From contig NC_057718.1 in assembly GCF_004010195.1 (NCBI RefSeq), positions 94,924,702-94,958,336 on the forward strand: a DNA stretch of 33,635 bases, written 5' to 3'. Shown here piece by piece: positions 2,132 to 29,693 of the stretch; the stretch's first letter is position 1; every line of letters starts with the position of its first letter. Origin of the DNA: Chiloscyllium plagiosum. Its lineage: Eukaryota. The position numbers were made by a program, and so were the translations under genes. The notes under the pieces are model-generated. The model ran no database searches. It saw only the letters and a program-made list of their open reading frames with translations, and was not told where the DNA came from.

Positions 2132-2322
2132 ATCCAGATAGTCATTAGCATATGCAACTGGGTGGGGCTTTTGCTAAGAAACAAACGTGTCCAAAAGTAT
2201 TCAAATTATGTCAAAACCACATATATGAAAATAATTTGCTATGACCATGTTTGATGTTTGGTCAGTTGGTGAAACCATCATGTGGTGTGCAACTAACCCT
2301 ATTTGGGTTTCGGAATGATTTT

Positions 2323-3450
2323 AAGATGCTGGTGTTGGACTGCAGTAGACAAAGTTAAAATTCACACAACACCAGGTTATAATCCACAGATTAATTTAGA
2401 AGCACTAGTTTTCAAGGCACTGCCCCTTCATCAGGTAGTTGTGGAACATGACCATACAACACAGAATTTATAGCAAAAATGTTACAGTGTCATGGAGTTG
2501 TAATGACAAATTAAAAATCACACAACACCAAGTTATAGTTCTTAAATAAATTTGATTAAGTCTTTCATCTTTTAGAACAGGATGTGGTGCTTTAGGTTCT
2601 TTAAAATGTAAATCCCAGAGTTACATTCTCAAAGTGGCATCAGCTTTACTAACAATAGGTGTCATTGCAGCTCAGACAATGCATTAAATGTGTAAAGGTA
2701 AAGTCTGTACCAGTGTTGAGCCAATTCTATTTCTAAAGTGGGGTTTACAGAAGCTTATATAAGTTTATGCAGTTTTTGAGTAAAATAAAATGTAATTCAG
2801 CAAGTACAAATTCACCCCGTAAACATTTGTGTGCACTTGCAGGAGTGACAGAGTGGGTGTGTGTATGAGAGTGTGCACGTGTGTGGATGTGAGTGCATCT
2901 GAAAGAGTGTAAGTGTATGGGTGTGATGACATTTAAGCCTGTGAGAGGATGAGTGCAGGGAGTGCATGTATGTGTGTATGAGAAAGGGTCTGCATGAGTG
3001 AGTGAGTGAGTGTGAGATAGTGTATAGTGCAGTGGGGTCACCTGTAGTGTGACATGAACCCAAGGTCCCAGTTGAGGCCGTCCCTATGAGTATCCAACTT
3101 AGCTATCAGCCTCTGCCCGGCCACTTTGCATTGTTGCTTGTCCTGAAGTCCGCCTTGGAGAATGGTCACCCAGAGATCTGAGGCCAAATGTCCTGGACCA
3201 CTGAAGTATTCCCTGACTGGGAGGGAACAGTCCTGCCTGGTGATCATTGCATGGTGTCCATTCTTCTGTTGTCATAGCGTCTGTTCAGTCTCACCAATGT
3301 CCCAAGCCTCAGCGCATCCCTACCTGCAGTATATGAGAGAGATAATGTTGGCCGAGTCACATGAGTACCTGCTGTGTATATTGTGGGAATTGTCCCCATG
3401 ATTGATGGTGATATCTGTGTTGACACCGACACGTCTTGCAGCATCTGCTC
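2323..3450 (-). mobile_element. Penelope-like element, left arm (GIY-YIG remnant, 3' UTR and tail)
   Basis: Minus strand reads CDSANIISLIYCR*GCAEAWDIGETEQTL*...QRLIAKLDTHRDGLNWDLGFMSHYR (decayed GIY-YIG endonuclease C-terminus), then a CA-rich UTR and a tail with a hammerhead core. Confidence 0.85.
2403..2437 (-). ncRNA. Minimal hammerhead ribozyme motif (decayed)
   Basis: Minus strand: tacCTGATGAAGGGGCAGTGCCTTGAAAACTAGTG. The CUGAUGA and GAAA cores are present, but the helix III palindrome is mutated relative to the copy at 4517. Confidence 0.6.
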
Positions 3451-3636
3451 AACAGTCACCAGGCAGGACTTTTCCACATCTAGAGGCAAACCAATCAACT
3501 CCTCTCTTAAAAGACTGCTGTTGGTTTGTTATCCATAGTTCGCTGGGGAGTCGCAATGTGGTTTTTTTGGAACAAACAAAGCAAACTCAGTTTGTATATT
3601 GTCTGAAAATCCACTAAATACTGAGTGCGCGCTGTG

Positions 3637-3702
3637 TCTCTCTCTCTCTCTCTCTCTCTCTCACACACACACACACACACACACACACACACACACACAC
3701 AC
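3637..3702 (+). repeat. Compound microsatellite (TC)n(CA)n
   Basis: Directly visible perfect TC run followed by a CA run. Confidence 0.97.
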
Positions 3703-25865: not shown

Positions 25866-28008
25866 TCGCAAGAGTCTCCCTACTGGCAGGAAGGTGATTT
25901 GAAGTGAGTCTACTTCAAAACCAGGAGCATCTGGAGTAAGGTGGGTGAACTTGCAGCATAAGTTGGCACCTGGGACTTTAATGTTGTGGTCATTTCGGAG
26001 ACATGGATAGAGCAGGGACAGGAATGGTTGTTGCAGGTTCCAGGGTTTAGATGTTTCAGTGAGATGGTAAAAGAGGAGGAGTGTGGCATTGTTAGTGAAG
26101 GACAGTTTTACGGTGGCAGGAAGGACGTTTGATGAGGACTCGTCTACTGAGGTAATATGGGCTGAGGTTAGAAACTGGAAAGGAGAGGTCACCCTGTTGG
26201 AAGTTTTCTATAGGCCTCTGAAACATTCTAGAGATGTAGAGGAAAGGACTGCAAACATGATTCTGGATATGAGCAAAAGTAACAGGGTAGTTGTTATGAA
26301 GGACTTTAACTTTCCAAATATTGACTGGAAGCGCTTTAGTTTGAGTACTTTAGATGGGTTATTTTTTGTCCAATGTATGGAGGGTTTCCCTCGATAGGCC
26401 AACAAGAGGCAAAGCCACATTGAATTTGGTAACCAGGCCATGTGTGAGATTTGAAGGTAGGTGAGCACTTTGGTGATAGTGACCACAATTTGGTTACGTT
26501 TACTTTAGCAATGGAAAGGGATAGCTAAAAACCTCAGGGCAAGAATTATAGCTTAAGGAAAGGAATTATGATGTGATTAGGCAAGATTTAGGTTGCACAG
26601 AATGGGGAAGAAAACTGCTGGAGATGGGCACAATTGAAATGTGGAGCTTATTCAAGGAACAGCTACTTGATAATTATGTACCTGTCAGGCAGGGAGGAAG
26701 TGGTTGAGCAACGTAGCCATGGTTTACTAAAGAAGTTGAATCTCTTGTCAAGAGGAAGAATGATGCTTACGTAAAGAGACATGAAGGCTCCATTAGGGCA
26801 CTTGAGAGTTACAAGTTAGCCAGAAGGGACCTAAAGAGACAGCTAAGAAGAGCCAGGAGGGGACATGAGACGTCTTTGGCTAGTAGGATCAAGTAAAACC
26901 CTAAAGCTTTCTATAGGTATGTCACAATTAAAAGAATGACTAAGTAAGATTGGGGCCAGTCAAGAACAGTAATGGGAAGTTGTGTGTGGAGTCTGAGGAG
27001 ATAGGAGAGGCACTAAATGAATATTTGTCATCAGTATTCACACTGGAAAAAGACAATGTTGTTGAGGAGAATACTAATATACAGGCTATTAGACTAGATG
27101 GGATTGAAGTTCATAAAGAGGAGATGATAGCAATTCTGGAAAGTGTGAACATAGATAAGTCCTCTGGACCAGATGGGATTTATCCTAGGATTCTCTGGGA
27201 AGCTAGGGAGGAGATTTTAGAACCTTTGGCTTTGATTTTTATGTCATCATTGTCTACAGGAATAGTGCCAGAAGACGGGAGATAGCAAATGTTGTTCTCT
27301 TGTTCAAAAAGGGGAGTAGAGACAACCCTGGTAATTATAGACCAATGAGCTTTACTTCAATTGTGTGTAAAGTGTTGGAAAGGATTAGAAGAGAGAGGAA
27401 TTAAAATGATTTGGAAAGGAATAATTTGATTAAGGATAGTCAGCACGGTTTTGTGAAGGGTAGGTCGTGCCTCACAAACTTTGAGTTCTTTGAGGTGACC
27501 AAACAGGTGGATGAGGGTAAGGCTGTTGATGTGGTGTATATGGATTTCAGTGAAGCATTTGATAAGGTTCCCCATGGTAGGGTATTGCAGAAAATACGGA
27601 GGCATGGGATTGAGGTGATTTAGCGGTTTGGATCAGAAATTGGTGAGCTGAAAAGAAGACAGAGGGTGGTGGTTGATGGGAAATGTTCATCCTGGAATTC
27701 AATTTCTAGTGGTGTACCACAAGGCTATGTTTTCGGGCCACTGCTGTTTGTCATTTTTATAAATGATGTGGATGAGGGCGTAGAAAGATGGGTTAATAAA
27801 TTTGCAGATGACACTGAGATCGGTGGAGTTGTGGGGAGTGTTGAAGGATGTTGCCGAGTTGTGAGCAGTGCCGAGGGACATAGCTAAGCTGCAGAGCTGG
27901 GCTGAGAGGTGGCAAATGGAATTTAATGTGGAAAGGTGTGAGATTATTCACTTTGGAAGGAGTAACAGGAATGCAAATTACTGGGCTAATGTTAAGATTC
28001 TTGGTAGT

Positions 28009-28999
28009 TGTTGTGGTTCTGTTCGCCGAGCTGAAAGTTTTTGTTGCAAACGTTTCGTCTTGCTCACACACACACACAAATGGGAATAGAGAGGAAATCC
28101 ACACACACAGACCAAGTCCTAAACTATGAAAGTAACCACCCCAACACACACAAACGAAGCTGCATCAGGACACTATTCAAAAGGGCCACAACACACTGCA
28201 GTACACCAGAACTGCAAAAAGAAGAAGAGGAACACCTATACAAGGTATTCGCCAAAAACGGAGACCCGCTCAACTTCATCAACAGATGCCTAAGAGAAAG
28301 ACCACGGAACAAGGACATACCACAACCAAAAGGACTAGCAACACTACCATACATCAGGAGCATCTCGGAACTGACAGCCAGACTACTGCGACCCCTAGGA
28401 CACATAACGGCACACAAACCAACAGCCACGCTCAGACAACAACTCACCAGAACGAAGGACCCGATACCCAACATGAGCAAAACCAATGTAGTGTACAAAA
28501 TACCATGCAAGGAATGCACAAAACACTATATAGGACAAACAGGAAGACAGCTAACAACCCGCATACATGAACATCAACTAGCCACGAAACGACACGACCA
28601 GCTATCCTTAGCAGCCACACACGCAGACAACACACGCAGACAACAAGCAACATGAATTCGACTGGGACAACACTACTATCATAGGGCAAGCCAGACAGAG
28701 AACAGCCAGGGAATTCCTAGAGGCATGGCATTCATCCACAAACTCCATCAACAAACACATCGACCTGGACCCAATATACCAACCACTACAGCGGACAGCT
28801 GAAACTGACAACTGGAAGCGGCAGGGACAGACCACTATAACACCGGAGGAAACATCAAAGAAGCGCTTCGCAGGAGGCTCCCAAGCACTGATAATGTCGC
28901 CTAGCCAGGAGACGAAACGTTTGCAACAAAAACTTCCAGCTCGGCGAACAGAACCACAACAATGAGCACCCGAGCTACAAATCTTCGCACAAACTTTGA
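28009..28999 (+). mobile_element. Penelope-like element (RT thumb and GIY-YIG) with an inverted tail copy at its 5' end
   Basis: 12-bp TSD attcttggtagt (27997-28008, 29000-29011). ORF RKSTHTDQVLNYESNHP...NVVYKIPCKECTKHYIGQTGRQLTTRIHEH. 28009-28060 is the reverse complement of 28910-28961. Confidence 0.93.
28885..28924 (+). ncRNA. Minimal hammerhead ribozyme motif (one core mutation)
   Basis: gca-CTGATAA-T-GTCgCC-tagcca-GGaGAC-GAAA-CGTT-tgc: helix I gca/tgc and ACGT palindrome. CUGANGA is changed to CUGAUAA. Confidence 0.6.
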
Positions 29000-29693
29000 A
29001 TTCTTGGTAGTGTGGATGAGCAGAGAGATCTCGGTATCCGTGTACATAGATCCCTGAAAGTTGCCACCCAAGTTGATAGGGTTGTTAAGAAGGCATACGA
29101 TGTGTTAACTTTTATTGTTAGAGGGATTGAATTTTGATGCCATGAGGTCGTGTTGCAATTGTATAAAACTCTGGTGTAGCTACACTTGGAATATTGTGTA
29201 CAGTTCTGGTCACCACATTATAGGAAGGATGTGGAAGCATTGGAAAGGATGCAGAGGAGGTTTACCAGGATTTTGCCTGGTATGGAGGGATGGTCTTATC
29301 AGGAAAGGCTGAGGGACTTGTGACTGTTTATGTAAGAAAGAAGGTTGAAAGGAGACTTAGTAGAGACATACAAGATGATCAGAGGATTAGATAGGGTGGA
29401 CAGGGAGAGCCTTTTTCCTTGGATGGCGATGGCTAGCATGAGAGGACATAGATTTAAATTGAGGAGTGATAGGACAGATGTCAGACTAAGTTTCTTTATT
29501 CAGAGAGTAGTAAGGGCATGGAACACCCTGCTAGCATCAGTGGTAGACTTTCCAACCTTAAGGGTATTTAAATAGATTGAATAAACATATGGATGATAAT
29601 GGAATAGTGGAGGTTAGATGGGCTTCAGATTGGTTTCACAGCTCGGTGAAACATCGAAGGCTGAAGGGCTTGTACTGCACTGTCATGTTCTAT

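Follow-up and report, generated by a model that had tools for sequence, protein, structure and literature searches.

The 33,635-nt stretch of Chiloscyllium plagiosum DNA analyzed here (the window) is crowded with remnants of long and short interspersed nuclear elements (LINEs and SINEs) and contains eight recognisable copies of Penelope-like elements (PLEs). Six of these are two-armed insertions (E1 to E6, labelled by position) and two are single-armed, non-inverted copies (E7 and E8). E1 to E6 are genuine, ordinary dead copies of PLEs, which between them display target-site duplications (TSDs), opposed arms, one-sided tails, endonuclease remnants and hammerhead motifs (Table 1), and their two-armed architecture with a tail on one side only is already known from the literature. 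Both target strands were probably primed on the sense element RNA, at two distinct sites, to give such copies. A preliminary description of the window had reported six insertions with opposed 3′ ends; all six were recovered, four being firm and two (E4 and E5) plausible, each with an outer arm so short that it is identified chiefly through homology. It had also presented E7, which has a 16-bp TSD, as a non-inverted counter-example, and had overlooked E8 as a second such case.

In all six two-armed copies the 3′ ends face outward and an extension of 29–42 nt is present on one arm only (~38 nt in E1, 34 in E2 and E3, ~38–42 in E4 as judged by homology to the E1 tail, 29 in E5 and 38 in E6), in agreement with the earlier report that one end runs to the extreme of the tail and the other stops short of it. 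The same report had placed the tail at both ends; this holds for the 3′ region of the pseudo-long terminal repeat (pLTR), shared by both ends up to the tail, and not for the tail proper. Also, E1 begins at 2316 rather than at 2323. The arms overlap by ~690 nt in E1 (73–79% identity by blastn, once a later SINE is removed), 53 nt in E6, ~20 nt in E2 and E3, 10 nt in E5 and ~7 nt in E4. In three copies (E2, E3, E4) the tailless arm exceeds its partner in length, and in the other three (E1, E5, E6) the tailed arm does. The tailless arms of E1 and E4, which are related, end on one and the same homologous base, 54 nt past the predicted ribozyme cut. When eight arms, from decayed copies, were folded at minimum energy, the tailless end had no structure in common. 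Assignment is weaker in places: the two arms of E4 are not significantly alike (1,226 of 2,000 shuffles reach an equal score), and the orientation and arm assignment of the middle 69 nt of E2 (6484–6552) are weakly supported, with 9 to 1,363 of 2,000 shuffles scoring as well against four upstream regions. Both E1 arms additionally carry an upstream second copy (82%; 2505–2553 and 4390–4427) of a ~50-nt motif preceding the tail (2348–2397), an internal duplication of the pLTR.

Five of the six two-armed insertions are flanked by clean TSDs of 12–14 bp, within the 11–14 bp given for all six in the preliminary description, and the sixth (E4) retains a decayed candidate matching at 8 of 11 positions. 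LINE-like reading frames overlap on the two flanks of E4, in line with its decayed TSD. By way of control, 3,000 random position pairs were examined, and in 10 of them a repeat of at least 12 bp, with no more than one mismatch, lay less than or equal to 10 nt from either end. The TSDs are not uniformly AT-rich (50–79% AT versus 59% for the window) and no strong target preference was found among the insertions. The TSD of E6 is confirmed by its empty site, which was recovered from sequencing reads: in two runs, 1,553 and 1,430 reads lack precisely 1,003 nt and have 12 letters that can be assigned to either side of the gap, and the same empty site occurs in 5 and 6 contigs of two other species. 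E6 sits inside a multicopy LINE; the empty-site reads correspond to other copies of this host LINE, which have the 12-mer once. Contigs of the same two other species bridged no empty site for E4 or E5. One subfamily of the host LINE differs just upstream of the E6 site (27965–27972 to 29000–29015), ~600 reads per run having 32 other letters.

Since one TSD pair brackets both arms, each two-armed unit represents a single event, which speaks against chance pairs of independent insertions. Inverted ends plus a TSD give the units a superficial likeness to miniature inverted-repeat transposable elements (MITEs), and a DNA transposon with terminal inverted repeats was one of the outcomes named in the preliminary description as refuting its interpretation. 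This identity was rejected on account of the variable and unequal arms and of E7: the ends are offset by 29–42 nt, the shared part of the arms can be as short as 10 nt or less and as long as ~690 nt, the TSDs are anywhere between 12 and 16 bp, single-armed E7 has a TSD of its own, and the bodies encode remnants of a GIY-YIG endonuclease (EN) whose relatives carry reverse transcriptase (RT). Non-autonomous DNA transposons and chance pairs are, in consequence, scarcely credible as explanations.

The insertions are 5′-truncated and derive from several EN-bearing PLE families, at least four of them represented among E1 to E6. The GIY-YIG domain scores above the Pfam cut-off in E7 (6.1e-5) and below it in E6 (0.021), and the small size of E2 to E5 leaves no room for coding sequence. 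The window is devoid of a full-length, RT-bearing PLE, the form in which a partial tandem makes a direct 5′ pLTR, and no copy in it has an RT domain; among 16 longer homologues of the E6 protein, 12 carry RVT_1 and 13 carry RVT_1 or PF28514, the best homologue being from bamboo shark (90% identity). The CX2-5CxxC linker located between RT and EN is present in E7 (as CX4CxxC), absent from the E6 open reading frame (ORF) and reduced to a CCKTC remnant in E1, a sequence pattern which suggests that Neptune-type (E7) and Poseidon-type (E6) families are both present. On the basis of their 3′ ends E3, E5 and E7 are kin, as are E1 and E4 and likewise E6 and E8, the E3/E5 family being 82% like the 3′ end of E7. 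E1, E3, E4 and E5 would probably belong with E7 to the Neptune clade, and E6 and E8 to the Penelope/Poseidon clade. Read depth, which counts reads from 80% likeness, reaches 62,630 over E5 versus ~0–1.8 in unique bins, corresponding to ~10^5 arms of the E5 family.

Viral, metagenome and prokaryote genome collections contained no match to a 23-nt motif taken from the tail of the E3/E5 family. The E6 protein had none in prokaryote genomes and four weak 36-residue matches in viral contigs (E 6e-5), which were not used. Half of the E6 query is 88% identical to part of a shark MAP3K7 isoform model (P0012), which suggests that a PLE piece has been exonised or mis-annotated into this kinase gene. Two further candidate stubs were left out of the tally of eight copies. 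These probable PLE 3′ ends (16083–16146 and 10701–10753) have no clear TSD and no second arm; one has a hammerhead-like core and the other is 81% identical over 27 nt to the E5 3′ region.

The canonical unit of EN-bearing PLEs is described as a pLTR with a head-to-head inverted, 5′-truncated copy and a 30–40 bp tail at one end (PMC3846280; PMC8557442, Fig. 2), and inverted pLTRs with 3′ extensions are mentioned in a curation guide (PMC8969392). The window copies share with this unit the head-to-head arms, the tail on one arm, the single TSD around the whole, the 5′ truncation, the hammerhead in the pLTR and the C-terminal GIY-YIG domain, and their offsets agree with the published tail length. 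They differ from it in being mostly tiny (89–217 nt in four cases) and in having TSDs of 12–16 bp, versus 8–10 bp in rotifer examples.

In L1 twin priming, too, the second target strand primes on the RNA, as is proposed here, and the product is a 5′ segment in inverted orientation enclosed by a single TSD; the two cDNAs cover non-overlapping parts of the RNA, and the position of the internal site varies. In contrast, the second site is near-fixed in the PLE copies, where 29–42 nt separate it from the first, and the overlap between arms is 7 to ~690 nt.

The closest biochemical counterpart is Poseidon of Anolis carolinensis, for which nicking and extension of both strands have been reported in vitro on an uncleaved RNA template, with one RT start site on each side of the tail; the protein is predicted to be a dimer, and the tail is equated with the span between the two start sites (Frangieh 2024, PMC11167929). 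By analogy, the element protein would nick both target strands 12–16 bp apart and both 3′ ends would be extended on sense RNA, one from a start after the tail and the other from 29–42 nt upstream. End-joining would next connect the two truncated cDNAs in head-to-head orientation, and the TSD would result from filling of the gaps. Coordination of the two primers would fall to the protein and not to a ribozyme dimer. Two-strand priming of the type seen in vitro probably made E1 to E6, from either one or two RNA templates. The preliminary description had likewise proposed dual priming; two-site priming fits both the geometry and the published biochemistry and is likely right, though not new, while the idea that one of the events is terminal is unneeded, both in vitro start sites being internal to the RNA.

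The left arm is antisense and grew from the top-strand nick, which leaves two possible origins for it, copying of sense RNA or fold-back of the first cDNA. The latter view has been held by others: one primed cDNA, or else an antisense transcript, would serve as its own template, and the resulting hairpin would be cut by the endonuclease or stop at the tail boundary (Arkhipova 2013, PMC3846280; Craig 2021, PMC8557442). It gives a strictly one-sided tail with no extra assumptions, accommodates the longer tailed arm of E1, E5 and E6, and finds some comfort in E3, whose junction is near-palindromic and whose arms both have T where E5 and E7 have C (10505–10508, 10523–10528); the shared T would be expected if both arms go back to a single template molecule or a single source copy. 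However, fold-back of a tail-primed cDNA cannot yield a tailless arm reaching further 5′ than its partner, as observed in E2, E3 and E4, and these copies favor dual RNA priming. The same homologous stop in E1 and E4 favors two RNA-primed cDNAs as well. E7 ends approximately at the tailless position (aligned to E5) and has no second arm, and E8 carries the tail (with a weak 7-bp TSD candidate only), implying that either site can prime alone. In vitro, moreover, both strands are extended on RNA, and the tail boundaries are RT start sites (PMC11167929). Taken together, fold-back appears a rather unlikely origin for these copies.

Reads over positions 23400–29100 of the window, and hence over E4, E5 and E6, were surveyed for loose ends. 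Two classes of similarly large size occur within E5, one at the tail end (25139; 37,342 and 36,839 reads) and one at 25096 (33,623 and 32,293 reads), the consensus of the latter decaying ~10–14 letters further on. As a trace of two priming sites these classes are suggestive only. No loose ends were found inside E4 or E6, among the few listed overall for this interval. Rare joins of the near-tailless end to a reversed tail end (25096/25139) were found in 19 and 12 reads and in 21 and 30 contigs (<0.1% of ends), and could represent tandem two-armed units, circle junctions or nested insertions.

Several observations weigh against dual priming as set out above. The evidence comes from only six events, spread over at least four families; two of these events depend on an arm no longer than 10 nt, and the six were picked in the preliminary description for their asymmetry. 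The 25096 class of loose ends is partly due to a 3-nt indel at 25097 private to E5. Fixed family-specific offsets had been named in the preliminary description as support for programmed dual priming, and the offset differs by 5 nt between E3 (34) and E5 (29), members of one family; the spread of Poseidon start sites is similar (~8 nt, PMC11167929). The near-palindromic E3 junction fits fold-back equally well and, since fold-back and annealing of cDNA ends predict similar microhomologies, junctions do not discriminate between the two. Finally, the bulk start sites reported for Poseidon are alike on both strands (Frangieh 2024, PMC11167929), and the lack of a strand difference would alone predict tail/tail and tailless/tailless insertions, of which there are none among the six.

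This last discrepancy raises a more tentative possibility, namely that a two-armed insertion always combines a tail-primed end with a tailless-primed one, the reason being that a protein dimer of asymmetric build holds one RNA molecule by its tail. The nicked strands would lie on the two flanks of the dimer and two RT sites would compete for one template, which would explain both the discordance of the ends in all six copies and the overlap of ~21 nt or less in four of the six. Under an independent 50:50 choice, six discordant pairs out of six have a chance of 1.6%, and the four firm cases alone of 6.3%. The discordance thus hints at a coupled asymmetric complex, although strict pairing of this kind is, in our estimation, somewhat more likely to be wrong than right. 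The start sites given in the Poseidon study are bulk values, in which the two ends of single insertions are unpaired, unlike those of the window copies (PMC11167929). The literature search found no published quantification of end pairing, and among the papers it turned up only Frangieh 2024 deals with PLE mechanism as judged by title or abstract; older PLE papers outside that search may state such a rule.

The preliminary description had gone further and proposed that two PLE RNAs, joined through the palindromic helix III of their hammerhead ribozymes, serve as the two templates, thereby tying ribozyme dimerisation to inversion. Minimal PLE hammerheads do have a palindromic helix III and are thought to be dimeric, the activity of dimeric and trimeric constructs being low (PMC4209133). 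Our own motif scan predicted minimal hammerhead cores in eight arms (both of E1, and one each in E2, E4, E5, E6, E7 and E8), with two stray hits outside the elements; five of the six two-armed copies thus have a core, and both single-armed copies have a palindrome of 4 bp only, as the dimer idea would have it. Rfam reported no hammerhead in the window at E≤5, its sole above-threshold match being a decayed 5′ fragment of 18S rRNA (31277–31800, 120 bits), probably a retrocopy. The main arm of E5 begins right at its hammerhead core (25010–25012; compare 6478–6483), and other arms in the window do not.

Several lines argue against this link. The palindromes pair over 4–8 bp only, at −3.1 to −7.7 kcal/mol, and no relation between their strength and two-armed structure is seen among the folded copies: the 4-bp form also occurs in two-armed E1, and two-armed E3 and E5 are kin of E7. 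In no two-armed copy does the inner junction coincide with the palindrome. Dimerisation would favor cleavage, yet all eight core-bearing arms continue past the predicted cut site, and a two-fold symmetric dimer predicts equal ends rather than one tailed and one tailless. Naiads, reported to lack canonical hammerheads (some retain the core), form the same inverted-plus-tail units (PMC8557442). In the Anolis system hammerhead catalytic mutants still prime with insertion unchanged, and RNA cut back to +20, without core residues C3 and G8, remains active in priming, although this RNA may retain part of the palindrome and the reported assay scored strand extension, not complete two-armed insertions (PMC11167929). 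No literature linking PLE hammerhead dimers or palindromes to insertion structure was found by title or abstract. The ribozyme-dimer link is therefore unlikely rather than excluded, and we assign it very little probability.

Table 1. Features of the PLE copies in the window (positions are those of the window).
Feature	Position	Strand	Details
E1 TSD	2304-2315 / 4603-4614		12 bp, 11/12 identical, 1 mismatch
E1 tailed arm	2316..3600	-	tail 2316-2353; hammerhead core 2434-2399; inner limit approximate
E1 decayed GIY-YIG coding remnant	3382-3167	-	tblastn with E7 ORF, E=0.002
E1 tailless arm	3654..4602	+	hammerhead core 4520-4555; stops 38 nt short
Later SINE-like insertion in E1 right arm (not PLE)	3968..4257	+	homologous to 581-880
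E2 TSD	6379-6390 / 6608-6619		12 bp, exact
E2 tailless, longer arm	6391..6552	-	hammerhead core 6478-6441
E2 tailed, short arm	6553..6607	+	~21 nt shared (18/20) plus 34-nt tail 6574-6607
E3 TSD	10442-10454 / 10544-10556		13 bp, exact; 16 bp with 1 mismatch
E3 tailed arm	10455..10508	-	34-nt tail plus ~20 nt; E5 family (85%)
E3 tailless arm	10507..10543	+	extends further 5′ than tailed arm
E4 decayed TSD candidate	23483-23493 / 23698-23708		best match 8/11
E4 tailless, longer arm	23494..23636	-	decayed hammerhead 23576-23541; same homologous end as E1 tailless arm
E4 tailed arm	23651..23697	+	~7 nt plus ~40-nt tail; homology to E1 tail, 3/2,000 shuffles
E5 TSD	24988-25001 / 25145-25158		14 bp, exact
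E5 tailless arm	25002..25011	-	10 nt, 7/10 to partner (weak)
E5 tailed arm	25012..25144	+	starts at hammerhead core 25012-25050; tail 25116-25144
E6 TSD	27997-28008 / 29000-29011		12 bp, exact
E6 tailless arm	28009..28060	-	52/53 identical to right arm
E6 tailed arm	28061..28999	+	PLE ORF C-terminus remnant (to ~28790); hammerhead 28888-28928; tail 28962-28999
E7 TSD	16491-16506 / 17141-17156		16 bp, exact
E7 single-armed, 5′-truncated copy	16507..17140	+	GIY-YIG (Pfam 6e-5); CX4CxxC linker; hammerhead 17050-17084
E8 non-inverted copy with tail	~31968-32455	+	distant E6 relative (59%); hammerhead 32342-32382

Outside the PLE copies, last exons of a C2H2 zinc-finger gene were read by eye on the plus strand at 5746–5911, 7044–7203 and 7980–8158, E2 lying in an intron between them, and a promoter-like GC-rich island begins at ~32850.

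The structure of these insertions is in itself a described PLE signature and of little import. It is useful for the annotation of shark genomes, since such stubs resemble MITEs. Shark-type genomes also hold enough TSD-bounded two-armed copies for the end-pairing rule to be measured, and such a rule would constrain the second half of the PLE integration cycle. Strict pairing of a tailed with a tailless end, if true, would amount to programmed twin priming and would supply the step left open by the in vitro work.

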